From a bacterium UBA2219 (GTDB lineage: Bacteria; Desulfobacterota; Deferrimicrobia; Deferrimicrobiales; Deferrimicrobiaceae), in the NCBI GenBank assembly GCA_002327765.1, contig DCUH01000133.1, positions 58,885 through 122,884 of the forward strand: DNA of 64,000 bases, in the 5' to 3' direction. The notes beneath the pieces were generated by a model. The model was not told where the DNA came from and searched no databases. It saw only the letters and a list, made by a program, of their open reading frames with translations. A program made the position numbers and the translations under genes. Shown piece after piece: positions 25,861 to 64,000 of this stretch; positions within the stretch are counted from its first letter, which is position 1; every line of letters starts with the position of its first letter.

Positions 25861-25878
25861 ACGGATATCGATAAGGCA

Positions 25879-27953: not shown

Positions 27954-27964
27954 AGGAAAGGTCC

Positions 27965-30162: not shown

Positions 30163-30175
30163 AGGTTTTCGCAAT

Positions 30176-31081: not shown

Positions 31082-31083
31082 AC

Positions 31084-32256: not shown

Positions 32257-32466
32257 CATGGAGCCGCTCGGGATCGATTTTCCGGAAATGCCCGGCGCCA
32301 TCGGGGAGTTTCCTCCGTGCCCGGTCGGCGTGTCGTTCATGACCAGCCAGTATTCCTATGCGATGCAAAGCTTCGCCACCGTGCGCCTGCTTACTGGGTG
32401 CGACGACCGCAGCCAGCGGATTCAAGAAATATGTTTCTTTGCCACGTAGAATAAATATAGCGAAAT

Positions 32467-33363: not shown

Positions 33364-33429
33364 ACGAGTTGTTTCCAAATACGACTATTTTTATTATCTG
33401 AAACGGTAGCATGTCCGATGATGCGTTAA

Positions 33430-42034: not shown

Positions 42035-44550
42035 TTCGCCATTTATCCCGGGGATTGTTCGCGGTCGTGCTTCTGCTGGTTTCGGGTCTCCACGGCGCAT
42101 GGGCCGTGGACCTTTTCGGGACGGGAGGCGGGGTTTTCGGCCCGGCGCAATCCGGCGACGCGGACGCCAGGGGCTATTACCAGGGGACGGGGTCGAGATC
42201 CCCCTACCAGCCGACGGGGGATCCGTCCTCCGCCTATCCCCTGGGGGGCTATCCCTACCCGATGATGGGCGGCGACACCCTGGCGGATCAACCCGGCCCG
42301 CCGTCCGCGCCCGCCCCGACGCTTCCCCCCCTGCCGCCGGAAGGCCAGTCCGCGTTCGAGCAGTTCGTTTCGGGAAAGATCGAGATCACGAAAGCGCAGC
42401 TCGACGTGATCGTTTCCGACCCGGCGATCGTTTTCACGAATTTCCTCGCGGGCGTCCCCAACGGGACGGTGGCCGTGCCGGTCGGCATCGTCATGCCGCC
42501 GGGGGCGGCGGCGCCGGCGAAGCCTCCGGAATCGGCCGAGCAGAAGGCCGCGGCCCCCTCCTCCGACAACGTGGCGCCCGCCGCGACCGCCGGCTACCTC
42601 GTCGGCCCGCGGGACCGGATCGCCGATGCGTTCCGGCTCCTGGGGATCGCGAGCCCGTATTCCATTTCCATGGACCTGAAGCATTTCGGGCTCGACCTCT
42701 TCGAGCAGGGCCGTTCCGGCTTCCTCACGACGGCCAATCTCCCCGTGGGGCCCGACTACGTGCTGGGCCCAGAGGACGAGGTGAAGATACGGGTCTGGGG
42801 CAAGGTCGAAGGGGCATGGATCCGGCGGATCGAGCGGGACGGCACGGTCCGGCTGCCGAAGGTCGGCGTCGTCTCCCTCGGAGGGCTGAGCTTCGCGCAG
42901 GCGAAGGAAACGCTCCACAAGGAGTATTCGAGGGTGTTCACCGGGTTCGAGATGAACGTAACCCTCGGGGCGCTTCGCACGATGACCGTGTACGTCGTGG
43001 GCAACGCCCGGATGCCGGGCGCCTACACGGTGTCGTCGCTTTCGACGCTGGTGCACGCCATGATGCAGGCCGGCGGGCCGTCCAAGGCCGGGTCCATGCG
43101 CGACATCCAGATCCGCAGGGACGGGATGACGGTTTCCCACTTCGACATGTACGACCTGCTGCGGCACGGGGACAAGTCCGGCGATCCGAGGCTCCTGCCG
43201 GAGGACGTGATCTTCATCCCCCCCGTCGGCCCGGTCGCCGCGATCGCGGGCAGCGTGAGCCGCCCGGGGCTGTACGAGCTGAAGGGGGAGCGGACCGTTT
43301 CGCAGCTCATCGAGCTGGCGGGGGGGCTGAACGCCCTGGCGTTCCGGGGCCGGCTGCAGATCGAGCGGATCGTGGAGAGCAACCGCCAGATCGTGTTCGA
43401 ATCCGACCTCGCCGAATGGAAGGAAAGGGAGGTCGACCTCCGTTCCGGCGACATCCTCAAGGTCTTCCAGATCGTCAAGGACCAGCGTACCGTCCGCGTG
43501 ACGGGGGCCGTTCTCCGGGAGGGCGATTACGGGTTCACCCCCGGCATGACGGTGAAGGACCTGGTCGGCCTGTCCGGCGGGGCGAAATATTACGCGTACC
43601 TGAAGGAGGCGGAGCTGGCCCGCCTGTACCTTTCCGAGCAGGGGCCGCGGGTGGAGAAGGTCAACCTCGACCTGGAAAATGCGATGGCCGGGGATGCCCG
43701 GTCGAACCTGCCGCTGCAGGAAAACGACCACCTGTTCGTCCGGACCATCCCCGAGTGGGGCACGTACACGCAGGTCTCGGTCCTGGGGGAGGTCCGGTTC
43801 CCCGGCACCTACACCGCGCGGAAGGGGGAGCGGCTCTCCTCCCTGATCGAGAGGGCCGGCGGCTACACGTCGAGCGCCTACGTCCGGGGCGCCGTGTTCA
43901 CGAGGGTCAGCGTGCGGGAGACCCAGCAGAGGATGCTCGACGAGTCCATCGCGCGGCTGGAACGGGACCTGATGGCACAGAGCGCCGCTTCCGCGGCGAC
44001 CGCGGCCTCCGGCGAGGAGCTGGGGGCGAAGGAACTGGAGGTCCGGCGGGTCCAGGCGCTGGTGGAGAAGCTGCGGACCTTCAAGGCCCGGGGGAGGATG
44101 GTGCTGGAGGTGTCCTCGCCGGAAAAGATGAAAAACACCATGAACGACATCGAGCTCGAAAACGGGGACGTCCTGTACGTGCCCCAGAATCCCCGGTGCG
44201 TCCACGCGTTGGGCGCCGTGTTCAACCAGGCGACGTTCGTTTTCGACAAGAGCAAGGGGGTCGAGGATTACATCACGATGGCCGGCGGGTTCATGGACTC
44301 CGGCGACAAGGAGCGCGTCTACATCCTGAAATCGAACGGGTCCGCGGTCCGTCCCGACAGCGGCCGTTTCTTCCTGCTCCCCGGGTCTTCGTTCTCCTCG
44401 GCGGACGGCAAGCCGATACTGGAATCCGGGGACACCATCGTGGTGCCCGAGAAGATCGACCGGATCGCGTGGCTCCGCAACACTAAGGACGTCTTCCAGA
44501 TCCTGTTCCAGGCGACGATGGCGGCCGGCGTCGTGATCGCAGCGTTGTGA
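42033..44550 (+). CDS. Polysaccharide export protein, Wza/KpsD-like with multiple SLBB domains (paralog 2, 839 aa)
   Basis: Signal peptide MIRHLSRGLFAVVLLLVSGLHGAWA. SLBB modules (VLGPEDEVKIRVWGKVEG..., GSVSRPGLYELKGERTVSQLIELAGG..., GEVRFPGTYTARKGERLSSLIERAGG...). Collinear with paralog 1 except for the insert. Confidence 0.85.
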
Positions 44551-44574
44551 GAGGCATCGACACGGGAGCGTAGA

Positions 44575-45717
44575 ATGGACCCCGACACGACCATCCGCGA
44601 GGAAGAAATCGACTGGGGTGCGGTGTTCCGCGCCCTGTCCCGGAGGAAATGGCTCATCCTTCGTGTCGCCGCCGCGACCGCGGTGATCGCCGCCCTGGTC
44701 TCCCTGTTCCTGCCCGTCTATTACGAGGCGGAAACGAGGATCTACCCTCCCCAGGACAAGGGGGGCAACCTCGCGGCGCAGCTCATGGGCCAGGGAGGGG
44801 GGTTGATCGCCCTCGCGACGGGGGCCGCGGGCGTCAGCGTCAAGTCGACGGGCGAGCTGTACGTGTCCATGATGAAATCCCGCACGGTCCTGGACCGGCT
44901 GGTCGACCGGTTCGACCTGCTGAAGCTATACGGGAAGAAGTACCGGCAGGACGCCCGGAGGGAGCTCCTCGACCTGCTCAAGGCCCGGGAGGAGCGGAAG
45001 ACGGGGATCATCGTCCTCTCCGTGCAGGACAAGGACCCGAAACGGGCGGCGGAGCTCGCCAACGCCTTCGTGGAGGAACTCCGGTCCCTGACGGGCGGGC
45101 TGTCGATCTCGGAGGCCGGCCAGCGGCGCCTGTTCTTCGAGGAGCAGCTCGCGCGGACGAGGGATGCGCTTTCCCGCTCCGAGGAAGAGATCAAGGAGTT
45201 CCAGCAGCGGACCGGCATGTTCCAGATCGACGCGCAGGCGGGCGCCATCATCGAAAGCATCGCGCAGCTGCGGGCGAGCATCGCGATGAAGGAGGTCCAG
45301 GCCAAGGTCCTGCGGTCGTTCGCGACCTCCCGGAATCCCGACCTGCAGCGGGTCGAGGAGGAGCTCCGGGGGCTGCGCTTGGAGCTGGAGAAGGTGGAGA
45401 CGAAAAAGGGGAGCGGCTTCGACCCCCTCATGTCCTCGGGCCGCGTCCCGGAGATGGGCTTGGAATATCTCCGGAAGATGCGGCAGCTGAAATACAACGA
45501 AACACTCTACGTGCTCCTCGCGAAGCAGTTCGAGCTGGCGAAGCTGGACGAGGCGAAAGAGGCGGTCGTCATCCAGGTGATCGACCAGGCGGTCCCCCCG
45601 GAGCGCAAGTCCAGGCCCCAGAGGGCGTCGATCGTCCTGCTCGCGACGGGGCTGGCGCTCCTGCTCTCCTCGTTGTACGTGCTGTTCGGCGAACGCCCGT
45701 GGAAGAGGGCGGGTTGA
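44575..45717 (+). CDS. Polysaccharide co-polymerase / chain-length determinant (Wzz-like, paralog 2)
   Basis: N-terminal TM (LILRVAAATAVIAALVSLFLPV), a long coiled-coil periplasmic region, and a C-terminal TM (IVLLATGLALLLSSLYVLF). No Walker motifs. Confidence 0.75.
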   Translation: MDPDTTIREEEIDWGAVFRALSRRKWLILRVAAATAVIAALVSLFLPVYYEAETRIYPPQDKGGNLAAQLMGQGGGLIALATGAAGVSVKSTGELYVSMMKSRTVLDRLVDRFDLLKLYGKKYRQDARRELLDLLKAREERKTGIIVLSVQDKDPKRAAELANAFVEELRSLTGGLSISEAGQRRLFFEEQLARTRDALSRSEEEIKEFQQRTGMFQIDAQAGAIIESIAQLRASIAMKEVQAKVLRSFATSRNPDLQRVEEELRGLRLELEKVETKKGSGFDPLMSSGRVPEMGLEYLRKMRQLKYNETLYVLLAKQFELAKLDEAKEAVVIQVIDQAVPPERKSRPQRASIVLLATGLALLLSSLYVLFGERPWKRAG

Positions 45718-45793
45718 CCGGGGAAGATCCCCTTCCCATGCCGCCGGAACGGGAAGGAAGGCCGGCCTCCGCTCCGCGCCGGGTGCCCCTCCC

Positions 45794-47332
45794 GTGAGCC
45801 GGCCCCTCAGCGGGCGGCTCATGGTCCGCAACGCCCTGGCGAACGTCGCGAGCGGGGCCTCCGCCGCACTGCTCGCCATCGTCCTGCCGCCCGTCCTCGT
45901 GCGCGCCCTGTCGGCGGAAGTCTACGCCACGTGGGCCCTCATCCTCCAGATCGGGGCCTACACTGCGCTATTGAATTTCGGGATCCAGACGGCCGTCGGC
46001 CGGTTCGTGGCCCGCTACGACGAAACCGGCGAGACCGGCCGCCGCGACGAGCTGGTGTCCACGGCCTGGGCGGTCCTGTCGGCCAGCGCGGCGGCGGGGA
46101 TCCTGGCGATGCTCCTGCTTTCGGCCTTCCTCCCCGAATTTTTCCCGAGGATCCCCGCCGCGGTCCGCCGGGAAGCGCAGGGCTCCCTGGCCTGGGTCGG
46201 GACCTCCCTGGCGCTGGGCCTTCCGTTCTCCGTCTTCATGGGGATCTTCATAGGCCGCCAGAGCAACGGGATCCCCGCGGTGATCCAGGTGGTGAGCCGC
46301 CTCGCCACGGGGGTCGGGATCTACCTCGTCTGCATCTTCTCCCCGACCCTGCTGTCCATGGCGAAGGTCTTCGCCGGGGTGAACTTCTGCACGTACGCGT
46401 TCCAGTACCTCGTGCACAGGCGCTGGAACGGGGACTGCGACATCCGCCCGGGGCTGGCCGGCAGGTCGGCGTGGGCCGACCTTTGGGACTACTGCTTCAG
46501 TCTCACCGTCTGGAGCCTGGCCTCGCTGATGGTTTCCGGCCTGAGCCTGGTGATCGTCGGGAGGCTCGATTTCGGGGCCGTCGCCGCGTTCGCGATCGCC
46601 TCGGGCCTCGTCACCTTCATCAGCGGCCTGCAGGGCGCCGTCTTCAACGTGCTGATCCCGGTGGGCGCCGTCCTCCAGGTCGACACCGACGGGGACCGCC
46701 TCCGCCGCATGCTCCTGAACAGCACCCGCTACGGCGTGCTGCTCCTGCTGGCCTCGGGGCTGCCGCTGTTCGTCTTCGGGGACTTCCTGCTGAAATACTA
46801 CGTCGGCCCGAAATGGATCCCGCAGACGCTGCCGCTTCTCCAGTTGCTCGTCGTGGGGAACCTGATCCGGCTGTCCGCCGTGCCGTACGTCTCCCTGCTG
46901 ATCGGGACCGGGCAGCAGCGGCTGGTCATCGCCAGCCCGCTGCTGGAAGGGTTCACGAACCTCCTCTCCAGCGTTTTCCTCGGGTTGCGGTTCGGCGCCC
47001 GCGGCGTGGCGGTCGGCACCATCCTCGGGGCGGTGGTTGGGCTGGTTTTCCATATCCTGTACAATTTCCCCAGGACGGACCAGATCCCGGCCCGGGCGGG
47101 CCGGTTCGTGCGGGAGGGGCTGCTCCTTCCGCTGGTCCCCGCGCTGCCCTGGGCCGCGTGGGTCTTCCGGGACCGGATCCTCCCTTCGGGGGGATCGGCG
47201 GCGTTTCCGCTGTTCCTGGCGGTCGCCGGATCGACGCTTTACCTTTTGTGGAAATTCGTCCTCCGCCGGGAAGAGCACGAGGCGCTGGCGGGCTTTCTGC
47301 GCCGGAGGGGACAAGGGGCCGACCGCGCGTGA
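45794..47332 (+). CDS. MOP-superfamily oligosaccharide flippase (Wzx-like, paralog 2)
   Basis: 512 aa with about 12-14 TM helices. Confidence 0.75.
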   Translation: MSRPLSGRLMVRNALANVASGASAALLAIVLPPVLVRALSAEVYATWALILQIGAYTALLNFGIQTAVGRFVARYDETGETGRRDELVSTAWAVLSASAAAGILAMLLLSAFLPEFFPRIPAAVRREAQGSLAWVGTSLALGLPFSVFMGIFIGRQSNGIPAVIQVVSRLATGVGIYLVCIFSPTLLSMAKVFAGVNFCTYAFQYLVHRRWNGDCDIRPGLAGRSAWADLWDYCFSLTVWSLASLMVSGLSLVIVGRLDFGAVAAFAIASGLVTFISGLQGAVFNVLIPVGAVLQVDTDGDRLRRMLLNSTRYGVLLLLASGLPLFVFGDFLLKYYVGPKWIPQTLPLLQLLVVGNLIRLSAVPYVSLLIGTGQQRLVIASPLLEGFTNLLSSVFLGLRFGARGVAVGTILGAVVGLVFHILYNFPRTDQIPARAGRFVREGLLLPLVPALPWAAWVFRDRILPSGGSAAFPLFLAVAGSTLYLLWKFVLRREEHEALAGFLRRRGQGADRA

Positions 47333-48099: not shown

Positions 48100-49326
48100 A
48101 TGGAAGCCGGCGCATCCAGATCGTTTTCCTCCCGGATCAGCGTGTTTTCCTGGTTCGTCGCGGTCTACCTGATCATCTACATTTTCCCGTTCGCGGTGCT
48201 GGTTCTCCAGGACGAGATCGACCTCAAAGAGCCCGGCACCCGCACCCATTTCCGGTTCGCGATGCTGTACATACTTTCGTACGTGGCTTCCGGCTTCCTG
48301 CTGTCGGCGATTGCGTCGTACTACAAAAGGGAAACGTCCTATTCGAGCGGCTACGTGGAAGGCCGCGTGCTGGGAAAAAGGGCGATCGCGGACCGGGTCG
48401 CCACGGTCATGGGATACCTGGGGTCGATCTTCATCGTCCTGTATTACGTGAGCGGCGGCTACAAGAAGATCATGATGCTCGGGTCGGAAATCGAGGCCTG
48501 GGAATACCGGATCATCGGGTATGACGATACGAGCCGCGTATTGACCGCGCTTCTCGAGATCTCGAGACGCATATTGATGCCCTATGCTCTGCTGGTGAAA
48601 CTGGCTTTCAAGAAATTCCATGTCGGGAGGAAGGATCACAGCCTCCTTCTGTTCCTGCCGGTGGCGGTCCTTGGGGCGGTCGTCAACCTGGACAGGGGGC
48701 CCGTATTCCTCTACCTGTTCCTCGCGATTTTCTTTATTCTCATCACGTCCCGGTCCGGCTACCTGCTGAAATTTTCCTATCTGCTGGTCTTCATCTTCTG
48801 CGTCGGCGTGATCGGGGGCGTCGTCACCCTGCTGCAGCACAACATCGTCGATTTCGACCTGGTCCGCTTGTCCCAGACGTTCTTTCCGATCGTGTTCGAC
48901 CGGATCGTTCTCGACCCGGTCCGCATGGCGGAGGAGTACGCGTTCAGCGACGTCTCGCTGTACGGGAATCCCCTGTACCTGAAATATTCCCGCCTGGGGG
49001 CGCTGGTCGGCGCGGAATACGTGGGGACGGAGCACCAGTTTTCCTTCTACGTGACGCCCGTCGGCCTGGTGGGGGACATCTGGAGGAATTTCGGCATGCC
49101 GGGCGCCGTGATCGTCGGCATGGTCCACGGGCTCCTGTTCAAGATCCTGTCTTCCCTTTTGAAGAAATGCGATTTCGCGGCGACACTGCCCGTGTATTTC
49201 CTGGTGATAATATTAATATTCTACCTGTTCTACTCCGGCATGTTCTCCCAGGGGCCGTTCGCGCTCCTGTTCATGATATTCATCATGTCGTATTCCAATA
49301 AATTGTTTTCAAGGGAATATGCATAA
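48100..49326 (+). CDS. Putative polysaccharide polymerase (Wzy-like/EpsG-like polytopic membrane protein)
   Basis: 408 aa, about 11 TM helices, rich in aromatic residues. Sits next to the flippase and the acetyltransferase. Confidence 0.55.
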   Translation: MEAGASRSFSSRISVFSWFVAVYLIIYIFPFAVLVLQDEIDLKEPGTRTHFRFAMLYILSYVASGFLLSAIASYYKRETSYSSGYVEGRVLGKRAIADRVATVMGYLGSIFIVLYYVSGGYKKIMMLGSEIEAWEYRIIGYDDTSRVLTALLEISRRILMPYALLVKLAFKKFHVGRKDHSLLLFLPVAVLGAVVNLDRGPVFLYLFLAIFFILITSRSGYLLKFSYLLVFIFCVGVIGGVVTLLQHNIVDFDLVRLSQTFFPIVFDRIVLDPVRMAEEYAFSDVSLYGNPLYLKYSRLGALVGAEYVGTEHQFSFYVTPVGLVGDIWRNFGMPGAVIVGMVHGLLFKILSSLLKKCDFAATLPVYFLVIILIFYLFYSGMFSQGPFALLFMIFIMSYSNKLFSREYA

Positions 49327-54046: not shown

Positions 54047-54682
54047 GTGGGCAAACGGCTGTTCGACGTCGTTTTTTCCGCGATGGGCCTGTCGATCCTG
54101 GCCCCTTTCCTGCTCCTCCTCGCCGCGGCGATCAAGCTCGATTCTCCCGGGCCGGTCTTCTATCGCGGGGTCCGGGTGGGGCTGGGCGGCCGCCCCTTCC
54201 GAATCTACAAGTTCCGAAGCATGGTGGCCGACGCCGAGTCGAAGGGCGCCTCGTCGACCAGCGGGGCCGACCCGCGGGTCACCCGCACCGGGCGGTTCAT
54301 CCGGCGGTGCAAGCTGGACGAGTTCTCCCAGTTGATCAACGTGCTTTTGGGGGACATGAGCCTGGTCGGCCCCCGCCCGGAGGTGCAGAAGTACGTCGAC
54401 CGGTACACCGACGAGGAAAAGGTTATACTGACGGTCCGTCCCGGAATCACCGACTGGGCCTCCATCAAGTACCACAACGAGGGGGAGATCATCGAGTCTT
54501 CCGGGATCGCCGACGCGGACGAGGCGTACGAGCGGCTCATCCGGCCCGGGAAGCTCCGGCTGCAGATGAAATACGTCCGGGAGCGCAACATGTGGATCGA
54601 CATCCAGATCATTTTCCGCACGATCCTGACGATTGTTTCCGGCCGCGCGGGGGGCGGCCCGGTCGGGATCCCGGAGGATTGA
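54047..54682 (+). CDS. Small monotopic polyprenyl-phosphate sugar phosphotransferase (PglC/WcaJ-C-domain type; second priming enzyme)
   Basis: MGKRLFDVVFSAMGLSILAPFLLLLAAAIKLDSPGPVFYRGVRVG...YKFRSM...LINVLLGDMSLVGPRP. 211 aa with a single N-terminal re-entrant helix. Confidence 0.85.
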   Translation: MGKRLFDVVFSAMGLSILAPFLLLLAAAIKLDSPGPVFYRGVRVGLGGRPFRIYKFRSMVADAESKGASSTSGADPRVTRTGRFIRRCKLDEFSQLINVLLGDMSLVGPRPEVQKYVDRYTDEEKVILTVRPGITDWASIKYHNEGEIIESSGIADADEAYERLIRPGKLRLQMKYVRERNMWIDIQIIFRTILTIVSGRAGGGPVGIPED

Positions 54683-54695
54683 AGGGCGGAAGCGG

Positions 54696-55883
54696 ATGCG
54701 TTTCTCCATCAATCCCCACATCGAGAAGGTCATCTTCCCGCCGATCGTGGAGATCAAGCGCTCGGTCGTCGGGGACGCGGCGCCCTGCGGGAAGCCGTAC
54801 ATCGACCTCTGCCAGGCGGTGCCCGATTACCCGCCGGCCCGGGAGATGGTCGAGGCGCTGACGGCGCGGCTGCACGAACCGGAAACCGCCCTGTATACCT
54901 CCGACGAGGGGCTCCCCGAGGTCCGGGAGGCGGTCTGCCGGCGGTACCGGCGGATGTACGGCGCGTCCCTTTCGGCGGACAGCGTCTGCCTGACCGTCGG
55001 CGCCAGCCAGGCGTTCTGGCTGGCCATGGTCGCTCTGTGCGCCGCGGGGGACGAGGTCATCCTGCAGGTCCCGTTCTACTTCGACTACGACATGGCGCTC
55101 GGGATGATGGGGATCCGCCGCGTCTACGCGCCGTTCCGGGAGGAGTCCGGCGGCCTGCCCGACGCGGAGGCGATCGAGGCGCTGATCACTCCCCGCACCC
55201 GGGCGATCCTCCTCGTGACGCCCAGCAACCCGACGGGTGTCGTGATTCCTCCGGAGCTCCTCGACCGGCTTTTCGAAACGGCGAAACGGGCCGGGGTCGC
55301 GCTGGTGGTCGACGAGACCTACGCCGACTTCATCGCCGGCGGCGCACGTCCCCACGGGCTGTTCGGGCGCCCCGACTGGCGGGACCACTTCGTCCACATC
55401 ATGTCGTTCGGCAAGACGTACGCGATGACCGGCTACCGGGCCGGCCTGCTGATCGGGTCGGAGCGGTTCCTCCACCAGGCGATGAAGGCCCACGACACCA
55501 TGGCGATCTGCCAGCCGACGCCGACCCAGATCGCGCTGGGGTACGGCCTCGACCGCCTCGACGAATGGGTCGCGTCCAACCGCCGGATGATGGAGCGGCG
55601 GCACGACCGCTTCCGGGAGGAGTTCACGGCGCCGGGGAACCCCTTCGCGCTGGTCGCCAGCGGCGCTTTCTTCGCGTGGATCCGGCACCCCTACCGGGGC
55701 GCGTCGGGATGGTCCGTCGCGCGGAGCCTCATAGAGAAAGCGGGGCTGGTCACGCTGCCGGGGGAGATCTTCGGGCCGGAAATGTCGCGCTACCTCCGCG
55801 TGGCATTCGGTAATATCGTGGAGGAGCGGATCCCGGAGGCGGTTTCCCGATTCCGGGAGCTCAAGGGAGAGGAAGCGGGATGA
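54696..55883 (+). CDS. PLP-dependent aminotransferase, class I/II fold
   Basis: SFGKTYAMTGYRAGLL (Schiff-base lysine context). 395 aa. Confidence 0.8.
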   Translation: MRFSINPHIEKVIFPPIVEIKRSVVGDAAPCGKPYIDLCQAVPDYPPAREMVEALTARLHEPETALYTSDEGLPEVREAVCRRYRRMYGASLSADSVCLTVGASQAFWLAMVALCAAGDEVILQVPFYFDYDMALGMMGIRRVYAPFREESGGLPDAEAIEALITPRTRAILLVTPSNPTGVVIPPELLDRLFETAKRAGVALVVDETYADFIAGGARPHGLFGRPDWRDHFVHIMSFGKTYAMTGYRAGLLIGSERFLHQAMKAHDTMAICQPTPTQIALGYGLDRLDEWVASNRRMMERRHDRFREEFTAPGNPFALVASGAFFAWIRHPYRGASGWSVARSLIEKAGLVTLPGEIFGPEMSRYLRVAFGNIVEERIPEAVSRFRELKGEEAG

Positions 55884-56986
55884 GAAAAGTGCGGTTCGTG
55901 GAACCGGCGAAAGTCTACCGGATGATCAAGGACGAGCTCGACGCCGCCTATTTCGACTGCATGGCGAGGGGGGAGCTGATCGACCGCGGGCACCTTCGGA
56001 GCTTCGAGGAGAACCTGGCGCGGTTCGTGGGGACGAAATACGCCGTGGGGCTGAACAGCGGCTACGACGCGCTTCACATGTCGCTGCGGGCGGCGGGGAT
56101 CGGTCCCGGGGACGAGGTCGTCGTCCCGGCGCACACGTTCGTGGCGACCTGCTCCGCGGTGGTGAACGTGGGCGCGACGCCCGTGCTGGTCGATGTGGGG
56201 AAGGATTTCAACATCGACGTCGACCGGGTCGAGGAGTCCCTGACCCCGAGGACCCGGGCGATCATCGCCGTCCATCTGAGCGGGTACATGGCCGACATGC
56301 CCCGCATCCTGCGGATCGCGGAGAAGCACGGGCTGAAGGTCGTGGAAGACGCGTGCCAGAGCCTGGGCAGCAGCATTGACGGGAAGATGGCGGGCTCCTT
56401 CGGCCTCACTGGCTGCTGGAGCTTCTACCCGTTCAAGATCCTGGGCGGGTACGGGGACGGCGGGGCGGTCACGACGGACGACCCCGAAGTTGCGCTGTTC
56501 GCCCGGCGGATGCGGTACAACGGGGAGGACCGGGACACGGGGGAATACCACGGCCACGGCTTCACCTGCCTCCTGGACAACCTCCAGGCGGCGTTCCTTG
56601 ACGTGAAACTGCGGCATCTGCCGGCCTGGATCGTCCGGCGGAAGGCCGTCGCGGAGATGTACCGGCGCGGCTTGAGCGGCATCCCGGGCCTGATGCTGCC
56701 GCATTACGACCGCCCCGGATTCGATCATGTCTACCAGAACTACACGGTCCGCTCGACGCGTGGGAACGAGTTCTCTGAATACCTGAAGGCCAACGGCATC
56801 GAGGTGCTCACGCAGTTCCGGAAGCCGTACTACCGGCACGAGGCGCTGGGCCTTCCGGACCGCGGCTTCCCGGAAACGGAGGCCCTGAGCCGCGAGGTAT
56901 GCTCCCTTCCGATGAACGTGGAGCTCGACGACGAAGAGATCGAATACGTCATCCGCATGGTGCGTTCCTTTTACGGGCTCGCATGA
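55880..56986 (+). CDS. DegT/DnrJ/EryC1/StrS-family sugar aminotransferase
   Basis: Typical DegT motifs (GDEVVVPAHTFVAT, FYPFKILGGYGDGGAV, CSLPMN). Confidence 0.9.
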   Translation: MRKVRFVEPAKVYRMIKDELDAAYFDCMARGELIDRGHLRSFEENLARFVGTKYAVGLNSGYDALHMSLRAAGIGPGDEVVVPAHTFVATCSAVVNVGATPVLVDVGKDFNIDVDRVEESLTPRTRAIIAVHLSGYMADMPRILRIAEKHGLKVVEDACQSLGSSIDGKMAGSFGLTGCWSFYPFKILGGYGDGGAVTTDDPEVALFARRMRYNGEDRDTGEYHGHGFTCLLDNLQAAFLDVKLRHLPAWIVRRKAVAEMYRRGLSGIPGLMLPHYDRPGFDHVYQNYTVRSTRGNEFSEYLKANGIEVLTQFRKPYYRHEALGLPDRGFPETEALSREVCSLPMNVELDDEEIEYVIRMVRSFYGLA

Positions 56987-57966
56987 AGGACGGAGGTGAC
57001 CGCGGATTGAGGGTGTCCCCGAAAGACCTCTACCGCGCGATGGTCCGCATCCGCGTCTGCGAGGAGAGCTTCGTCGAGCCGATCCTCGCCCGGGAGATCC
57101 TGTGCCCGGTCCACCTTTACACCGGTCAGGAGGCGGTGGCCGCCGGGGTCTGCGCGGCCCTGTCGAAGGAGGATTACATCTTCGGCAACCACCGTTCCCA
57201 CGGGCATTATCTCGCGAAGGGCGGCGGCATGAGGGAGCTGGTGGCCGAGGTGTATTGCAGGGAAACGGGCTGCTCCCGGGGGTGGGGCGGCTCCATGCAC
57301 CTCGTGGACCCCTCCGTCGGCATGATGGGTTCCGCGCCCATCGTGGCGGGGACGGTCTCCCTGGCGCTGGGGGCCGCGCTCGCCTCGAAGATCCGCGGCG
57401 ACGGCCGGGTCGCCGTCAGCTTCTTCGGTGACGGCGCCAGCGGCGAGGGGGTCCTGTGCGAGTCGCTGAACTTCGCCGCGCTGGAGAGGCTGCCGCTCCT
57501 GTTCGTCTGCGAGAACAACCTCTATTCCACGCACCTGCCCATCGACGAGATCCGCGTCAGCCGGAAGATCTTCGAGCTGGGAATCCCGTTCGGCGTGACG
57601 AGCCGCCGCGTCGACGGGAACGACGCCCTCGCGGTCCACGAGGCCGCGCGGAAAGCGGTGTCCATGTGCCGGAAGGGAAAGGGGCCGGTCTTCCTGGAGT
57701 GCCTGACGTACCGCATGCGGGGCCACGTCGGACCGGACGACAACATCCAGGGGACGCACACCGACATCCGCCCGCCGGCCGAGGTGGAGAAGTGGCGGCG
57801 GAAGGATCCTATCCGGAGGATAGAGCGTCACATCCTGAGGAACCGGGTCGCATCGCGGGAGGAGCTGGCGGAGATCCGCGCCGAGGCGGAAGCGGAAGTC
57901 CGCGAGGCGCACGATTTCGCCCGGCGCAGCCCGTTTCCGGGAGAGGGGATTACTGAGCCGACATGA
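56983..57966 (+). CDS. TPP-dependent dehydrogenase E1 component alpha subunit (PdhA/AcoA-like)
   Basis: TPP-binding motif (GDGASGEGVLCESLNFAALERLPLLFVCENNLY) and phospho-loop region (YRMRGHVGPDD). Confidence 0.85.
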   Translation: MKDGGDRGLRVSPKDLYRAMVRIRVCEESFVEPILAREILCPVHLYTGQEAVAAGVCAALSKEDYIFGNHRSHGHYLAKGGGMRELVAEVYCRETGCSRGWGGSMHLVDPSVGMMGSAPIVAGTVSLALGAALASKIRGDGRVAVSFFGDGASGEGVLCESLNFAALERLPLLFVCENNLYSTHLPIDEIRVSRKIFELGIPFGVTSRRVDGNDALAVHEAARKAVSMCRKGKGPVFLECLTYRMRGHVGPDDNIQGTHTDIRPPAEVEKWRRKDPIRRIERHILRNRVASREELAEIRAEAEAEVREAHDFARRSPFPGEGITEPT

Positions 57967-58940
57967 CCGCGAAGGGCCGGAAGTTGACCTATAGCCTCGC
58001 GATCAACGAGGCGCTCCACCAGTCGATGGAACGGGACGATTCCGTCCTCCTCCTCGGGCAGGGGGTCAAGAGTCCCTGGTACGTCGGGAACACGGCCCAG
58101 GGCCTGTTGAAGCGGTTCGGGAAGCTCCGGGTGATCGACACGCCGGTGTCGGAGAACGCGATGACCGGAGCCGCCGTCGGGGCCTCCATCGTCGGGATGC
58201 GCGCGGTGGTCGTCCACCCGAGGGTGGATTTCATGCTGTACGCCTTCGACCCCATCGTCAACGAGGCGGCCAACTGGTCCTACATGAACGGCTCCCGGAC
58301 CCCGGTCCCGGTGGTCTTCTGGGGAGTCGTCAACCGCGGGGGGGAGCAGGCCGCCCAGCACTCGCAGTCCCTTCACGCGACGTTTTCCCACGTCCCCGGC
58401 CTCAAGGTGGTGATGCCCGCCACTCCATTCGACGCGAAGGGGCTGATGACCGCCGCGATCCGCGACGACGGCCCCGTGGTCTTCATCGACGACCGGTGGC
58501 TGTACGACGTCGAGGGCGTGGTCCCCGCGGAGCCCTACGTCGTTCCGATCGGGAGGGGGATCGTGCGGAGGGAGGGGAAGGACGTGTCGCTGGTCGCGTC
58601 GTCCTACATGGTCGCGGAATCGATGAAAGCCGCCGCGATTCTCGAGCGGGAAGGCGTCGACGCCGAGGTCGTCGACCTGCGGACGGTCAAGCCGCTGGAT
58701 GTTGCGCTGATCCTTGCGTCGGTGGGGAAGACGGGCCGCGCGGTGATCGTGGACGGCGGCTGGAAGACGTGCGGCCTGGCCGCCGAGGTGGCCGCCCTCA
58801 TCGCGGAAAACGGTCTCTGCGGCGGGAAAAACCTCATCCGGCGGGTCACCCTGCCGGACACCCCGGCGCCCGCGAGCCGATCGCTGGAGAAAGGATATTA
58901 CCTCGACGCCCGGAAGATCGTCGAGGCCGTGATGAGGTAA
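57963..58940 (+). CDS. TPP-dependent dehydrogenase E1 component beta subunit (PdhB/AcoB-like)
   Basis: Transketolase-like pyrimidine-binding domain (VIDTPVSENAMTGAAVGASIVGMRAVV) plus a C-terminal domain. Confidence 0.85.
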   Translation: MTAKGRKLTYSLAINEALHQSMERDDSVLLLGQGVKSPWYVGNTAQGLLKRFGKLRVIDTPVSENAMTGAAVGASIVGMRAVVVHPRVDFMLYAFDPIVNEAANWSYMNGSRTPVPVVFWGVVNRGGEQAAQHSQSLHATFSHVPGLKVVMPATPFDAKGLMTAAIRDDGPVVFIDDRWLYDVEGVVPAEPYVVPIGRGIVRREGKDVSLVASSYMVAESMKAAAILEREGVDAEVVDLRTVKPLDVALILASVGKTGRAVIVDGGWKTCGLAAEVAALIAENGLCGGKNLIRRVTLPDTPAPASRSLEKGYYLDARKIVEAVMR

Positions 58941-58968
58941 GCGGAACCCGGGTTTTCGCGGTTCCCGC

Positions 58969-59481
58969 TCAGTGCCCCCAGAACGTCTCCACCAGCCCCG
59001 CCTTCCAGCCGTCCCCTTCCCGGAACATTCTCAGCACCGCCGGCCGGTCCGCCCCCTGGCGGGTGATCAGCACCTCCGCCCGGTCCTTCTCCCAGGCCCC
59101 CATCTGCCAGCGGCTTTTCTCGAGCGCGTCGTCGGGATCGAACCTGCGGAGGAACGCCTCCCAGTATTCCCGCGAGATCGGCCCCCCCGCGGCGAAATCC
59201 TCCCGAATCCGCTCCTTCGGGAACGGCGGGGCGCCGGTCCTGCGGATCGCGTCGTCGGTTTCCGAGATGATCGTTTCGCGCGATTTCCCGGTAAGGACGC
59301 GCCAAGTCGCGGGGTAATCCTTCGTCTTCATCGTCCGGAAGAGCGTTTCGGCGGCGTCGAGGATCGAATGAACGGCGAGCGTGTCCGGCGGCGGGCCGGC
59401 TTCGGCGCGGAACGCGCCGGGTGAAAAAAGAAACGCCGCGATCGCGAGGATCACGGCGTCTTGCCGCAACAGGGCCTTCAA
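58969..59481 (-). CDS. Small secreted protein of unknown function (170 aa)
   Basis: TTG start with signal peptide MKALLRQDAVILAIAAFLFSPGAFRA. The ORF-track version is extended N-terminally by a Pro/Arg-rich translation typical of spurious high-GC frames. Last gene of the gfc-like operon. Confidence 0.5.
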   Translation of the reverse strand: MKALLRQDAVILAIAAFLFSPGAFRAEAGPPPDTLAVHSILDAAETLFRTMKTKDYPATWRVLTGKSRETIISETDDAIRRTGAPPFPKERIREDFAAGGPISREYWEAFLRRFDPDDALEKSRWQMGAWEKDRAEVLITRQGADRPAVLRMFREGDGWKAGLVETFWGH

Positions 59482-59497
59482 GCCGGCCGGGCCCCGG

Positions 59498-59860
59498 TCA
59501 TGGGCTGGTAGTGTGGGCCGGAGAGGAGGAGGAGCCGCCCCCGCCTCCCGCCGCCACGGCGATGAGCGCCGCCGCCGCGACCCCGCCCGCGATCCAGCCC
59601 CACGTCCCCCTGGAGATGCCGGAGGAGGTCTTCTCGCCCGCGGCTTCCCCGGCGGTCGCCGGGCCGGTGGGCACCCCGGAGGTCGCGGGCCCTCTCGGCC
59701 AGGTTTCCCAGGGGGAAGATTTGAGCGCGGGCTTGGGAGCCGGCGCGGGATCGGCCGCCAGCACGGGCGCCACCGCCATGATTTCGAAGGAAAGGAAGCA
59801 GGCAAGCGACAGCAGCGCCGCAAAGATCTTCACGGGGATGCGGGACCGGCAGATCGTCAT
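59498..59860 (-). CDS. Small secreted Pro/Ala/Gly/Ser-rich protein with C-terminal hydrophobic helix (GfcA/YjbE-like architecture)
   Basis: MTICRSRIPVKIFAALLSLACFLSFEIMAVAPVLAA signal, a low-complexity PAPAPKPALKSSP...GPATAGEAAGEKTSSG stretch, then a WGWIAGGVAAAALIAVAAGGGGG helix. AAGGGGA RBS 6 nt upstream. Confidence 0.45.
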   Translation of the reverse strand: MTICRSRIPVKIFAALLSLACFLSFEIMAVAPVLAADPAPAPKPALKSSPWETWPRGPATSGVPTGPATAGEAAGEKTSSGISRGTWGWIAGGVAAAALIAVAAGGGGGSSSSPAHTTSP

Positions 59861-59885
59861 GATAATCCCCTTATGGATCGAAATG

Positions 59886-62039
59886 TTACCTGATTCCCTT
59901 GTACAAGTCCCGGGTGTCCTTGTCAAGCAGTATATCCGTGTTGCGCCCGATGAAGTCGGCCAGCGGGTGGTAGTGGTCGATGTCCTGCCCGGCGTCCCGC
60001 GTCCATGGAGAGAGGCTGATCCGGTAGGCGGTCCGCGAATCCCGCCCCAGGAAGAGCCGGATCGGGATCGTGACGGAGATCCCCTTGTCGTTGTACCCCC
60101 GGTTGAGCGAATCGGTGAAGTCGGAGGTGTCGGTGGTGGTGTACCACGCGGTCAGGGTCACCCCGCGGATGAACTTCGACATCGAGAACCGGGCCCCGTA
60201 ATCGCCCGCCAGGAACCGGCCGCCCTTGACGTCGAACCAGAGGTCGGCCTCCGGGACGTTCAGCCGCCCGCAGAGGAAGGCCGTCTTGTACCAGTTGTCT
60301 CCGGTGAGCCGGAACGGATCGTCCGGAGAGCGCTTCCGGACGGCGCTTCCCCCCGCGCTTCCGATCAGCCGCCCCCTGAAGAAAGGAACCGCGATTTCGG
60401 CGTCGAAGCCGGCGTACTGAATCTCGAGCATCCCCGCGGTGACGCGCGCGAAAATCGGGGAATCCGTCTTCACGATCTGGTCGAACAGGAGCCTGCCCAG
60501 CGCGAAATCCTGCTCTTTGTATTGGCCGACATCACTGCGCACCGGGTTGGAGAGCGGCTCCACGGTGCTGCTGACGTCGTTGAACGGGTACGCCTCCAGC
60601 CCCATGACGGCAGTACCGCCCCTCCATGGAAAGAGGTTCAGGTTCGCGATGGCGCCGCCCCGGAAGCTTATGAAACGCGATGCTTGGTTCAGGTAGGCGT
60701 CCAGCGCCGGCTTGATCTCCCAGCCGTACCGGCGGCGGCTGGTCGTGTTCCGGATCGGGTCCCCGATGGTTTCCGTCCGGAACGAGGAGACCTCGAAGAA
60801 ACGGCTTCGGGGCATGCGCCCCTCGCGGAGCATCTCGAGGGCCGCGGTCGTCGTGATGAACTCGACCATCGGAATGCCGTTTTCCTTGATGCGGATGCGG
60901 ACGTATTCGTACCGGGAGGGGACCATCGGGGCGATGGAATCGACGGCGGCCGCGACGGCGTCGGGGGTGTAGAAATACCGGTTGTTCTCCGCGTCGACGC
61001 GCAGGAAGTAGTCGTCCCCGTCCACCCCGACGTCACTGAAGCCGGATGCGAGAAGCGCGGCGGCGATCCGTTCGGCCAGCGGGTTCTGCCGTTCCGCGTC
61101 CGGTTCCTTGTAGGGCGGGTCGTAGATGGGCAGGATCGGCCGCCCGATGTCGAAGGAGACCGTGGCGCCGAGGCCGAGCTCCTCCCCCCGCTGCCAGCTG
61201 GCGTCGACCTCCAGCCAGCTAAAGGGTTTCAGGCGCACGCCGGCGTTGATCTTCGAGCGGACCGGCTCCGTGAAGTATTTTGGTTGCGCGGGGTCACGGG
61301 TCTGCCGCTCGTACCGGACCGGGCTGTATTCCACCGACAGGGTGATCCAGTCGGTGGCGGCGAACTGGACCCCCCCGAAGAGCTGCGCGTCCCGCCACCA
61401 CGAATTCGGGCTGGTGAACATTTCCACCTTGAACCCGTCGATCTGCTCGGGAAGCGGCTGCTTGCCCAACCGTCCGTTCCCCAACCCGATGGTGAAGTCG
61501 AACGGGTAGAGCTGCTTGCTGGCAACGATCGACTGCGAGGGGTAGATGCGCGTTCCCTGCGGGTCGGAGATCGCGATGGCGAGGGCGGGTAGGTAAATCC
61601 CTTCCTTCACCAGCTGCAGCTTCAGGTCGAAGGCCTTGTCCTTGAAGTCGCCGTACCCTGATCCGGTGTCGCTGTCGAACCCGGGAATGCCACTTGTTTC
61701 CGTGATCCGCCCGTTCACCTCGAGGCGGTCGAACAGCCCCAATGTGACCCTGTAATAGCGGTAAGGGTGGACCTCCGTGATGCCGAACCGGTAGCGGTTC
61801 TGCTGCATCACCCGGGCGTTGGGGATCTCGTAGAGGCCGGTCAGGCCGTAGTTGGACGGGGAGGTGAACGGCTCGTCGCCCGCGCGGGCGGGAGGGGCGG
61901 CCGGCGCGGCGGCGAGCAGCAGCGCGGCGAGGGCGGCGGCCAGGAGCAGGAAGGCGCGGGCGCGGCGGGTGGGGGCGCGGCCGCTCCGGGCATCGGGCCG
62001 ACATGCGGGCCGCGCGTCCCGTGCGGCGCGGCCCGGCAA
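59886..62039 (-). CDS. YjbH/GfcD-family outer-membrane exopolysaccharide/group-4-capsule protein
   Basis: FKDKAFDLKLQLVKEG...ASKQLYPFDFTIGLGNG...LSPWTRDAGQ matches YjbH blocks as I recall them (YKDKAFDLKLRLWEE, ASKAWGPFDFTLGLGWG, WTPLTRDGGQ). Start placed at the in-frame TTG (rev-comp 62037-62039) before the hydrophobic signal AFLLLAAALAALLLAAAPA. Start position is uncertain. Confidence 0.8.
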   Translation of the reverse strand: MPGRAARDARPACRPDARSGRAPTRRARAFLLLAAALAALLLAAAPAAPPARAGDEPFTSPSNYGLTGLYEIPNARVMQQNRYRFGITEVHPYRYYRVTLGLFDRLEVNGRITETSGIPGFDSDTGSGYGDFKDKAFDLKLQLVKEGIYLPALAIAISDPQGTRIYPSQSIVASKQLYPFDFTIGLGNGRLGKQPLPEQIDGFKVEMFTSPNSWWRDAQLFGGVQFAATDWITLSVEYSPVRYERQTRDPAQPKYFTEPVRSKINAGVRLKPFSWLEVDASWQRGEELGLGATVSFDIGRPILPIYDPPYKEPDAERQNPLAERIAAALLASGFSDVGVDGDDYFLRVDAENNRYFYTPDAVAAAVDSIAPMVPSRYEYVRIRIKENGIPMVEFITTTAALEMLREGRMPRSRFFEVSSFRTETIGDPIRNTTSRRRYGWEIKPALDAYLNQASRFISFRGGAIANLNLFPWRGGTAVMGLEAYPFNDVSSTVEPLSNPVRSDVGQYKEQDFALGRLLFDQIVKTDSPIFARVTAGMLEIQYAGFDAEIAVPFFRGRLIGSAGGSAVRKRSPDDPFRLTGDNWYKTAFLCGRLNVPEADLWFDVKGGRFLAGDYGARFSMSKFIRGVTLTAWYTTTDTSDFTDSLNRGYNDKGISVTIPIRLFLGRDSRTAYRISLSPWTRDAGQDIDHYHPLADFIGRNTDILLDKDTRDLYKGIR

Positions 62040-62080
62040 CCGGTCGCGGATCCCGGCGACGCGGGCGGAGAGGGCCGGCG

Positions 62081-63022
62081 TCACGGTGGGCTCGCGGGCG
62101 CGCCTTCGACGGGCGCGCCGCCCCCGGTCCCGGGCGCCCCCGGAAGGACCACGGGGGTACCGGTGATCTCCGCGGCGCGCATCAGGACCCCGGGGACCCG
62201 GCGCGCGGTCCTGCGCGGAAGGCCGGGGAGCGTGGGGCGCGGCACGACGATCGCGTCGCCCGGGCCGATCTCGGGAATGGACCGGGCGAGCGCCGTCACC
62301 TCCCAGCGGGCCGCGGCGCGGTTCCAGGAGACGAAGCCGGGGGTCAGGAGCGCCGTCGTTCCGTCCGCCCGCAGCAGGTAGACCGCGCCGCGGTCCGCGT
62401 CGCCGGCGTACCCGCCGGCCCGGCGGACGTATTCCGCGAGCCGCAGCCCCGGGGAGAACGGCACGCGGGCTGGAGCCTCCCGCGCCGCTCCGCCGACCGC
62501 CCCTGCAATCGCGACGGTATCGTCCCTCGCGGGGATGCGGAGCGCGTCGCCCTCCTCCAGCCGCAGGTCGTCCGGGCTGTTCTTCAGGAGCCGCGGGTGC
62601 GTCATCCGCACGGGGACCCTCCCGGCGGGGCTCAACCCCATGAGGAGGGCGACGACGGGGCGCAGCGCGTCGCCCGCCGCCCCGGAGCCGCCGGTATCGA
62701 GGGCGAGCGTCGCGGCCGCGTTGTCGAGCTCCGCCTTCCCGGCCGCCCGGGCGGAAAGACGGATGAGCGCCGCCCCGCGCGGGTCCGCGCCGTCGGTGAA
62801 CCCGCCCGCGGCGAGCACCAGGGAGGAAAGGGTCGCGTCGTGGGGAAGGGTGTAGGCGCCGGGGCGCCTCACCTCGCCTTCCACGGTGACGGCGATCGGC
62901 CACGGGCCGCCCAGCGCGCGGACCGTTCCCGGCAGGAGGAGGGCGCACGCCGCCGCAAGGAGGAGGAAACCGGCCGTTTTCCCGGCCCTGGGGCCGCGCG
63001 GGCATTGGAGGAGGCGGGGCAT
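62081..63022 (-). CDS. GfcC/YjbG-like periplasmic protein with SLBB-type domains
   Basis: Signal peptide MPRLLQCPRGPRAGKTAGFLLLAAACALLLPGTVRA, then VTVEGEVRRPGAYTLPHDATLSSLVLAAGGFT (SLBB-like). Lies immediately upstream of the YjbH-like gene. Confidence 0.6.
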   Translation of the reverse strand: MPRLLQCPRGPRAGKTAGFLLLAAACALLLPGTVRALGGPWPIAVTVEGEVRRPGAYTLPHDATLSSLVLAAGGFTDGADPRGAALIRLSARAAGKAELDNAAATLALDTGGSGAAGDALRPVVALLMGLSPAGRVPVRMTHPRLLKNSPDDLRLEEGDALRIPARDDTVAIAGAVGGAAREAPARVPFSPGLRLAEYVRRAGGYAGDADRGAVYLLRADGTTALLTPGFVSWNRAAARWEVTALARSIPEIGPGDAIVVPRPTLPGLPRRTARRVPGVLMRAAEITGTPVVLPGAPGTGGGAPVEGAPASPP

Positions 63023-63148
63023 CCCCCGGAGTATACCGCGGAGCCGCCCGTTTTCGCCCTCTTCGACTTCCTTCTTGTTTAAAGTTTGCGATATCCTTAG
63101 CCGATCAGTCTGAATGTGTAATATATCGGCAAACATGGGGGAATCCGG

Positions 63149-64000
63149 ATGAACGTATCGATCGTGGGCACCGGCTACGTGGGGCTGGTCACCGGCGTGT
63201 GCCTGGCCGAGCGCGGGAACGAGGTTCTGTGCATCGACGCGAACCCGTCGATCGTTGAGCGGCTGACCCGCGGCGAAGTGACCATCTACGAGCCGGGGCT
63301 GGAAGAGGTCTACGCGCGGAACCAGAAGAAGGGGCGCATCTCCTTTTCGGGGGATCTCGAAAAGGCCGCGAAGGCCGACGTGATCTTCCTTTGCCTGCCG
63401 ACGCCTCCCGGCGAGGACGGCTCGGCGGACCTGCAATACGTGCTGAGGGTGGCCGGGGAGCTGGGGAAGATCTTTTCCCGCATGCGCAACCCGGAATACA
63501 AGGTGATCGTCGACAAGTCGACCGTGCCGGTCGGGACGAGCGAGAAGGTCCGGGCGGAGATCCGGAAATATTCCGGGCCGGATTTCGATTTCGACGTGGT
63601 CTCGAACCCGGAATTCCTCCGGGAGGGGTTCGCGGTCGAGGATTTCCTGCGGCCGGAGCGCGTGGTGATCGGGTCGGGCAGCGAGCGGGCGGTCCTGGTC
63701 ATGAAGGACCTGTACGAGCCGTTCCTCCAGCCGGGGAGCGCGGTCTTCGTGATGGACGAGCGCAGCGCCGAGGTCACCAAGTACGCAGCGAACGCCTTCC
63801 TCGCGCTGAAGATCTCCTACATGAACGACCTGGCCAACTTCTGCGAGGCCGTGGGGGCGGACATCGACAAGATCCGCGAGGGGATCGGCTCCGACTCGCG
63901 CATCGGGAAGAAGTTCCTCTTCCCCGGGCTGGGATACGGCGGCTCGTGCCTCCCGAAGGACGTGAAGGCGCTGCTGAGGACCGCGGAGGACGCGGGGGCC
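63149..64000 (+). CDS. ugd: UDP-glucose 6-dehydrogenase, N-terminal part (partial; runs off window end)
   Basis: MNVSIVGTGYVGLVTGVCLAERGNEVLCIDANPSIVERL... and GGSCLPKDV. Absent from the ORF track because it has no stop inside the window. Confidence 0.9.
   Translation, partial: MNVSIVGTGYVGLVTGVCLAERGNEVLCIDANPSIVERLTRGEVTIYEPGLEEVYARNQKKGRISFSGDLEKAAKADVIFLCLPTPPGEDGSADLQYVLRVAGELGKIFSRMRNPEYKVIVDKSTVPVGTSEKVRAEIRKYSGPDFDFDVVSNPEFLREGFAVEDFLRPERVVIGSGSERAVLVMKDLYEPFLQPGSAVFVMDERSAEVTKYAANAFLALKISYMNDLANFCEAVGADIDKIREGIGSDSRIGKKFLFPGLGYGGSCLPKDVKALLRTAEDAGA

Follow-up and report, generated by a model that had tools for sequence, protein, structure and literature searches.

In a 64,000-nucleotide (64-kb) window of contig DCUH01000133.1 from the Deferrimicrobiaceae bacterium UBA2219, four minus-strand genes (g1 to g4) probably form a gfc/yjb outer-membrane module, of the kind found with Wzx/Wzy-type polysaccharide loci, in a version specific to its lineage. 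They encode a GfcC/YjbG-like protein, a YjbH/GfcD-family outer-membrane protein, a small low-complexity protein with an architecture like that of YjbE and GfcA, and a secreted protein with an NTF2-like fold. New here are the gene order C-D-A′-NTF2 (lettered after gfcABCD, with A′ for g3), which is lineage-wide and lacks GfcB, and the linkage of the unnamed g4 family to YjbH. The family assignments themselves are ordinary, the YjbH family being already known as ancient and widespread. The four open reading frames (ORFs) are present where an earlier note on this DNA had placed them, tightly packed over positions 63022 to 58969:

g1, 63022-62081, minus strand: ATG start, 313 amino acids (aa); GfcC/YjbG-like periplasmic protein
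g2, 62084-59886, minus strand: likelier GTG start at 62084, giving 732 aa (TTG at 62039 gives 717 aa); YjbH/GfcD-family outer-membrane protein
g3, 59860-59498, minus strand: ATG start, 120 aa; YjbE/GfcA-like architecture
g4, 59481-58969, minus strand: TTG start, 170 aa; secreted, NTF2-like fold; unnamed YjbH-linked family

g2 belongs to the YjbH/GfcD family and g1 resembles GfcC in fold

The g2 product matched the Pfam hidden Markov model (HMM) for YjbH, PF06082, with 411 bits (E = 1.5e-122; cut-off, 24 bits) over model positions 3 to 656 of 658. In tblastn searches it aligned end to end with both YjbH and GfcD of E. coli (~25% identity, E = 1e-44). The YjbH/GfcD assignment made in the earlier note is unambiguous. 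A signal peptide ending in LLLAAALAALLLAAAPAAPPARA and followed by GD was read from the sequence. Members of this family are predicted to have two barrels, one of 12 strands at the N terminus and one of 13 strands with a lateral gate at the C terminus, separated by a periplasmic middle domain (PMC11494523). A double barrel is predicted for g2 from its full-length HMM coverage, which agrees with this layout.

For g1, Pfam reported SLBB (E = 4e-19) and SLBB_2 only. The GfcC model PF06251 fell short, with 13.4 bits against a cut-off of 20 bits (E = 0.085), and none of 92 g1 homologues carried a precomputed PF06251 label. Despite this shortfall in Pfam, the GfcC-like assignment was borne out at the profile and fold levels. 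A profile built from 26 homologues found GfcC (3P42) as its best match in the PDB (E = 4e-8), and hhalign gave probabilities of 92% to GfcC and 91% to YjbG over ~140 to 150 residues, a region spanning the helical insert, a conserved GR(V/L)PV strand, and a WN motif. In the AlphaFold (AF2) model (predicted local distance difference test score, 79), a beta-grasp domain is followed by a helical hairpin, a second beta-grasp domain, and a C-terminal amphipathic helix (residues 270 to 287; hydrophobic moment, ~0.6), which is the layout of GfcC. When this model was used as a Foldseek query, 3P42 was again the top match (E = 2e-11; template modeling score on the target, 0.60 to 0.63), ahead of Wza.

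The g1 product carries a signal peptide, and two other identities were considered for it and rejected. The Cys in the signal peptide could have marked a lipoprotein, but it is not conserved in the family and AAAC is a poor lipobox context. A class-3 outer-membrane polysaccharide export (OPX) protein was rejected because g1 lacks Poly_export (PF02563), which is present in both true OPX genes of the window.

The linkage of YjbH to g4 is conserved across the lineage

To define the distribution of the operon, a g4 profile was scanned over one genome per species (185,579 species). This yielded 24 loci, all from metagenome-assembled genomes and most labeled Deferrimicrobium, Deferrimicrobiaceae, or "Deltaproteobacteria"; Candidatus Deferrimicrobium has been placed in candidate phylum MBNT15 (PMC9386147). 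YjbH was encoded directly upstream of g4 in all 20 species-representative loci with enough upstream DNA. By tblastn, g3 lay between the two in 17 of these 20, and at least one of the loci lacking such a match has a 120-aa ORF called in the YjbH-g4 gap. All 16 loci long enough to show it have an SLBB protein encoded ahead of YjbH. This synteny agrees with the Pfam-labeled gene calls (L002 to L004).

Two architectures were found for the SLBB partner. A separate, two-domain g1 is encoded in the window and in L008, L011, L012, and L022. In the other architecture, a short SLBB part equivalent to g1 residues 31 to 166 lies directly against YjbH and shares its reading frame in 11 of 12 cases. These residues make up the first beta-grasp domain and the hairpin, which is all that the fused forms keep. 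Locus L002 was called as a single 796-aa SLBB-plus-YjbH product, and both Pfam domains lie on one chain in database proteins P0289 to P0292. Fusions were seen at L002/L010, L009, L016, L018, L019, L020, L025 to L028, and L030, with a product of ~800 aa.

The YjbH-g4 link is also kept in two divergent relatives of lower GC content. In L034, the order is YjbH, an 84-aa YjbE-like protein (2281-2535) ending in SGSSGSNTTTSHH, and g4. At L035, genes for an SLBB protein, YjbH, and g4 are joined by a g3-like gene on the minus strand (3858-4250), convergent after g4. The small YjbE/GfcA-like gene, which is the first gene in E. coli, thus shifts place and strand among lineages and always stays within the module. 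The earlier note had described the operon as rearranged. The order C-D-A′-g4 does differ from gfcA-B-C-D, but it is fixed lineage-wide and should not be taken for a recent event. At a fragmented locus, L032 (11324-12328), the gene calls place a 123-aa ORF and a DUF3187 protein after the SLBB-YjbH genes, and an HMM search finds g4-like and g3-like sequence in overlapping frames at positions 10411 to 11316, which suggests assembly frameshifts.

GfcB/YjbF was not found at the locus

The earlier note had seen no GfcB/YjbF lipoprotein, and searches of the window and of its relatives agree. The YjbF model PF11102 matched none of the ~55 window ORFs scanned with Pfam and none of the gene calls at L002 to L004. 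Searches with E. coli YjbF and GfcB (tblastn and phmmer) returned nothing better than E ~1 from the window and ~30 related loci. The operon leaves no room for a further gene inside it.

g3 and g4 are conserved genes

Neither g3 nor g4 matched a Pfam or NCBIfam model at E ≤ 0.1. Many long chance ORFs arise in GC-rich DNA, and the gene caller put the small gene of L003 on the opposite strand; both facts would fit spurious frames. That reading is already refuted by conservation, and we give it practically no credence. At E ≤ 1e-3, g3 has 85 homologues and g4 has 204 (the latter in a set of 5.8 billion proteins), with many invariant residues and indel-tolerant conservation, which makes them real genes and not GC-rich noise. 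GC content at third codon positions (GC3) is 0.87 in their assigned frames, their position is conserved, and g4 gave a confident structure model.

The g3 homologues have in common a cleavable signal peptide and an invariant WETWP motif, together with an AGEAAG..G.S.GT segment, a hydrophobic stretch rich in Gly and Ala, five to seven consecutive glycines (G5 in g3), and a Ser/Thr tail. The Pfam family matched by most of them is PF11106 (YjbE), which 16 of 25 members hit, every one below the gathering score (best E = 9e-4; window g3, E = 0.96). As a control, E. coli GfcA itself was compared with PF11106 and gave no match at E ≤ 10. Because an accepted paralogue fails in this way, the PF11106 model must be narrow. 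Alignment of the g3 profile with YjbE by hhalign gave a weak local match (23 aa, P = 5.6e-4, probability 30%), and none was obtained with GfcA. The GEAAG and ...AA(T/G)GGG(D/G)GS... segments of g3 recur in E. coli YjbE, and GfcA ends in LAVVAANDSGDGGSHNTSTTTSTT. A C-terminal pattern, devised after these sequences had been seen, matches YjbE, GfcA, g3, and 23 of 25 g3 relatives, and it picks out 1 of 507 ORFs in the GC-rich window, namely g3.

The earlier note had called g3 GfcA/YjbE-like. This holds for the architecture, which is shared, but sequence similarity stays below threshold. We nevertheless consider it fairly likely that g3 is the YjbE/GfcA counterpart. Alternatively, g3 could be an unrelated, lineage-specific small membrane-anchored protein whose resemblance is compositional only. 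The sub-threshold Pfam scores and the short hhalign match would fit this, as would the conserved WETWP motif, which has no counterpart in YjbE or GfcA, and the failure of the g3-family profile to detect the small proteins of L034 and L035. We judge a purely compositional resemblance to be the less likely explanation, although a credible one. It would have to account for YjbE matches in a majority of g3 members to a model that misses even GfcA, for a common order of signal peptide, low-complexity region, Gly/Ala/Val hydrophobic stretch, G/S/D/N run, and Ser/Thr tail, and for the rarity of the C-terminal pattern, post hoc as that pattern is. It would also have to explain why, in each of the lineages examined and irrespective of gene order, YjbH comes with a small protein of this type. 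The g3 C terminus was also considered as a PEP-CTERM or GlyGly-CTERM sorting signal, and this was rejected because the glycine run and the hydrophobic stretch come in the opposite order and a basic tail is lacking.

The extra secreted protein reported in the earlier note, g4, was confirmed. Its family comprises 196 representatives at E ≤ 1e-3 in a library of 1.84 billion representative sequences, nearly all of them stand-alone proteins of 150 to 190 aa. All aligned members carry a signal peptide, and a conserved lipobox cysteine is absent. The confident structure model shows an NTF2-like alpha+beta cone, with N-terminal helices packed on a curved antiparallel sheet. No sequence relation of g4 to YjbF or GfcB was found. 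A 2,123-aa protein, P0438, has six separate matches to the g4 profile (positions ~52 to 119; E = 1.6e-11) and could be a very large protein in which part of the g4 domain is repeated.

Gene limits and signs of a single transcript

The operon is flanked by the following features:

Divergent intergenic region between g1 and Ugd, 63023-63148, 126 bp: presumed promoter region
UDP-glucose/GDP-mannose dehydrogenase gene (Ugd), 63149-64000, plus strand: PF03721 (E = 3e-58) and PF00984 (E = 5e-33); cut by the window end
Hairpin in the convergent gap between g4 and an E1-beta gene, 58941-58968, 28 bp: likely bidirectional transcript end

The earlier note had begun g2 at TTG 62039. This codon is in frame, but GTG 62084 is the likelier start because it overlaps the g1 stop codon as GTGA, matching the 4-bp overlaps called at the corresponding junction in L003 and L004. 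The g1 start at ATG 63022 is backed by alignment with 25 homologues. The database copy of g1 (P0206, 351 aa) begins at ATG 63136, 38 codons upstream and 12 bp from the Ugd start; since the homologue alignment favors 63022, this public gene call is probably too long. An AAGGGG Shine-Dalgarno sequence lies 5′ of the g3 ATG, and the g4 start is backed by homologues in which M-K-x-L-L-R begins at the same position. Every gene of the operon has a GC3 of 0.87 to 0.92 in its own frame.

The short spacers (25 bp between g2 and g3, 16 bp between g3 and g4), the GTGA overlap of g1 and g2, and the hairpin after g4 suggest that the four genes are cotranscribed as one operon. This hairpin is a predicted stem-loop of about −15 kcal/mol on either strand. 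It has no T-run and so is not a canonical intrinsic terminator; g4 is convergent there with a transketolase-like E1-beta gene. The g1/Ugd intergenic region has a GC content of 52%, against 68 to 71% in its flanks, and the divergent Ugd neighbor is also present at L002 to L004. A sigma-70 scan that included this region found no consensus site. Within the operon, neither that scan nor one for intrinsic terminators gave anything above shuffled expectation, and Rfam reported no RNA element nearby.

Relation to known gfc/yjb-type systems

In E. coli, the lipoprotein GfcB forms a complex with GfcC and GfcD; the three are pictured as one unit, and B-C-D is a conserved core with gene overlaps of 1 to 4 bp (PMC8592465). 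The present operon resembles E. coli gfcABCD (found with gfcE-etp-etk) in several respects. A GfcD/YjbH protein is preceded by a GfcC-like protein with two beta-grasp domains in an overlapping frame, a small signal-peptide protein with low-complexity Gly/Ala/Ser/Thr sequence is present, and genes for a Wza-type OPX protein and a polysaccharide co-polymerase (PCP) adjoin (PMC8592465). It differs in lacking the GfcB lipoprotein, in having the extra NTF2-like protein, and in its order (C-D-A′-g4 instead of A-B-C-D). Moreover, it is transcribed separately from the OPX/PCP genes and convergently to them, no Wzb or Wzc kinase was seen beside it, and its identity to GfcD is ~25%. E. coli yjbEFGH is likewise a stand-alone four-gene operon, and it holds the best, if sub-threshold, family match of g3 (YjbE) as well as the 91% hhalign match of g1 (YjbG). 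In contrast to yjbEFGH, YjbF is absent here, g4 is present, and the small gene follows the barrel gene rather than leading.

OtnG of Burkholderia thailandensis is a GfcC-GfcD fusion (as cited in PMC8592465). In ~11 sister loci a GfcC-like part is similarly fused in frame to YjbH, whereas in the window g1 and YjbH are separate, and the sister fusions keep only the part equivalent to g1 residues 31 to 166. Outside E. coli, the gfcBCD-type set wbfD-wbfC-wbfB of Vibrio (orf1-wbfDCB) has been tied to exopolysaccharide (EPS) production and, like the present operon, is transcribed separately from wza-wzb-wzc (PMC8592465); Vibrio keeps a GfcB homologue (wbfD), which the present locus does not. The pairing of class-3 OPX protein and Wzp in Myxococcus xanthus also joins a periplasmic SLBB protein without its own pore to an outer-membrane beta-barrel (PMC9603273). 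This likeness concerns the possible mode of action. Poly_export, the defining domain of OPX proteins, is missing from g1, the barrel here is of the predicted YjbH double-barrel type and not the 18-stranded Wzp, and the OPX proteins of the window end in hydrophobic C-terminal helices of their own.

A possible role for the module and its alternatives

GfcD/YjbH has been proposed to export lipid-anchored polysaccharide (PMC8346858, PMC11494523). In the model that we favor, g2 would be the YjbH/GfcD-type outer-membrane beta-barrel component and g1 its GfcC-like periplasmic partner, made in coupled fashion, as the overlapping frames and the natural SLBB-YjbH fusions suggest. The g3 protein would correspond to YjbE/GfcA, and g4 would act as a periplasmic NTF2-like accessory dedicated to g2-type YjbH proteins. 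The slot that g4 would most plausibly fill is that of GfcB/YjbF, as an adaptor or ligand carrier docking on the GfcC-like protein and the barrel. The resulting complex would help to export or anchor polysaccharide made by the adjacent clusters, working alongside the two Wza-like exporters as GfcBCD does beside GfcE in E. coli. We regard it as likely that g4 is a true component of the module. Its functional substitution for GfcB is a more tentative suggestion, drawn from the absence of GfcB, the strict g4-YjbH linkage, and the cone or trough shape of both folds. Because fold and sequence differ and the lipobox is absent, such a substitution would be analogy, not homology.

Several observations weigh against this model. 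The similarity of g3 to YjbE is sub-threshold and compositionally biased. The g4 protein is NTF2-like, whereas GfcB is a LolA-like beta-sandwich, and g4 is unrelated to it in sequence and has no lipobox. The two most distant g4 relatives (E ~1e-10) lie in unrelated contexts, not beside YjbH. The absence of GfcB/YjbF applies to the 64-kb window and the related loci, and a YjbF homologue may lie elsewhere in the genome. Finally, few outer-membrane protein families are as widespread as GfcD/YjbH, but for the family as a whole the literature still offers only a hypothetical function (PMC8346858, PMC11494523).

The distant relatives also bear on the idea that g4, possibly with g3, is a passenger with an unrelated periplasmic role, such as that of a small-molecule-binding or enzymatic NTF2-like protein, and is merely co-located with YjbH. 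NTF2-like folds include many enzymes and ligand binders, and g4 has no Pfam family or annotation. YjbH lies next to g4 in all 20 loci with enough upstream DNA, and we consider a passenger improbable. At the other extreme, g4 could found a so far unnamed family whose members, periplasmic proteins with an NTF2-like fold, are obligate partners of one YjbH/GfcD branch and replace GfcB/YjbF functionally, a proposal that we rate as unlikely. Under it, g4 might hold the hydrophobic anchor of a lipid-linked glycan or bridge the GfcC-like protein to the barrel. If this were true, the carrier slot of the YjbH/GfcD machine could be filled by unrelated cone-shaped folds, and the use of unrelated carriers would point to a hydrophobic ligand for the machine. 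As a more speculative extension of this proposal, the YjbE/GfcA-like g3 could itself be cargo of a FapF-like N-terminal YjbH barrel.

A further alternative concerns the operon as a whole, which could be an exporter in its own right, dedicated to a polymer of its own, as has been suggested for yjbEFGH; YjbH would be the exit pore, and the operon would not serve as an accessory of the neighboring Wzi/OPX/PCP clusters. In its favor, wza-wzb-wzc does not adjoin yjbEFGH in E. coli K-12, and an alternative export route through GfcD has been proposed (PMC8592465; PMC11494523). The SLBB-YjbH-g4 set of L035 has no EPS genes downstream, and the window operon runs convergently to the big clusters and is transcribed apart from them. 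Nevertheless, the operon has no glycosyltransferase, flippase, or polymerase of its own, and in the window and at L002 to L004 it is embedded among sugar-nucleotide and EPS genes. Both OPX proteins of the window end in a hydrophobic helix and seem capable of crossing the outer membrane on their own, and the arrangement of OPX plus YjbH is that of GfcE plus GfcD in E. coli. An independent exporter therefore seems rather unlikely to us, and an accessory of the neighboring clusters remains the preferred reading of the operon.

The general picture of capsule export is unchanged by these findings. Most of the locus is ordinary, and the operon varies a known type of system only modestly. Still, in a whole lineage the barrel and the GfcC-like protein persist with no GfcB close to the barrel gene and are instead strictly linked to an NTF2-like protein. 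This lineage offers a natural comparison on what the third component of the module does. As a compact, soluble protein of 140 residues in its mature form (residues ~29 to 170), g4 is suited to tests of binding to lipid-linked glycan or to the GfcC-like protein.

Neighboring polysaccharide clusters

Two polysaccharide clusters occupy the plus strand from ~18.4 to 58.9 kb. The first contains a NusG-like gene, a Poly_export-plus-SLBB OPX gene, Wzz, a flippase, and glycosyl- and methyltransferases. The second contains a Polysacc_synt_2 gene, Wzi, a second OPX gene, Wzz/GNVR, further transferases, two aminotransferases, and a thiamine pyrophosphate (TPP)-dependent E1 alpha/beta pair. Their export genes are as follows:

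Wza-like OPX gene of the first cluster, ~19.4-22.7 kb, plus strand: Poly_export and SLBB
Wzi, 40541-42034, plus strand: PF14052 (E = 1.8e-68)
Wza-like OPX gene of the second cluster, 42031-44550, plus strand: Poly_export and SLBB
Wzz/GNVR co-polymerase, 44551-45717, plus strand: Wzz and GNVR

The Wzi and Wza-like neighbors named in the earlier note are thus real. The E. coli group 4 operon couples gfcABCD to paralogues of Wza, Wzb, and Wzc. In the survey of Saidi et al. (2022), 66 to 79 GfcD/YjbH homologues lay within 10 genes of OPX genes (PMC9603273). Because gfc-type modules are in this way normally paired with Wza-type exporters, the suggestion that three capsule-assembly paradigms meet in one neighborhood was overstated.

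There are two sets of OPX plus Wzz-type co-polymerase genes (18379-22715 and 40541-45717). The first is headed by the NusG-like (UpxY/RfaH-type) gene, and Wzi occurs in the second only. Pfam scans of the clusters showed no Wzc-type kinase domain or Wzb phosphatase. A low-GC island in the first cluster (24000-34000; 48 to 58% GC, against 66 to 71% in the flanks) carries flippase, glycosyltransferase, and methyltransferase genes. Horizontally exchanged regions that vary with serotype usually show up in this way. Positions 54633 to 58940 encode a class I/II aminotransferase, a DegT-type aminotransferase, and the TPP-dependent E1 alpha/E1 beta (transketolase-like) pair, a set unusual for a sugar pathway that may make a branched or keto-acid-modified sugar. 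Five sizeable cluster ORFs had no Pfam match at E ≤ 0.001 (45581-47329, 48100-49323, 25861-27171, 27866-28612, and, on the minus strand, 35394-36647). These may be polymerase or ligase-type membrane proteins, and the minus-strand ORF may not be a gene. Elsewhere in the window, a caspase-like peptidase C14 gene (14902-15960) lies between the genes for ribulose-phosphate epimerase and MetE, and a tRNA gene is located on the minus strand at 13354-13427.

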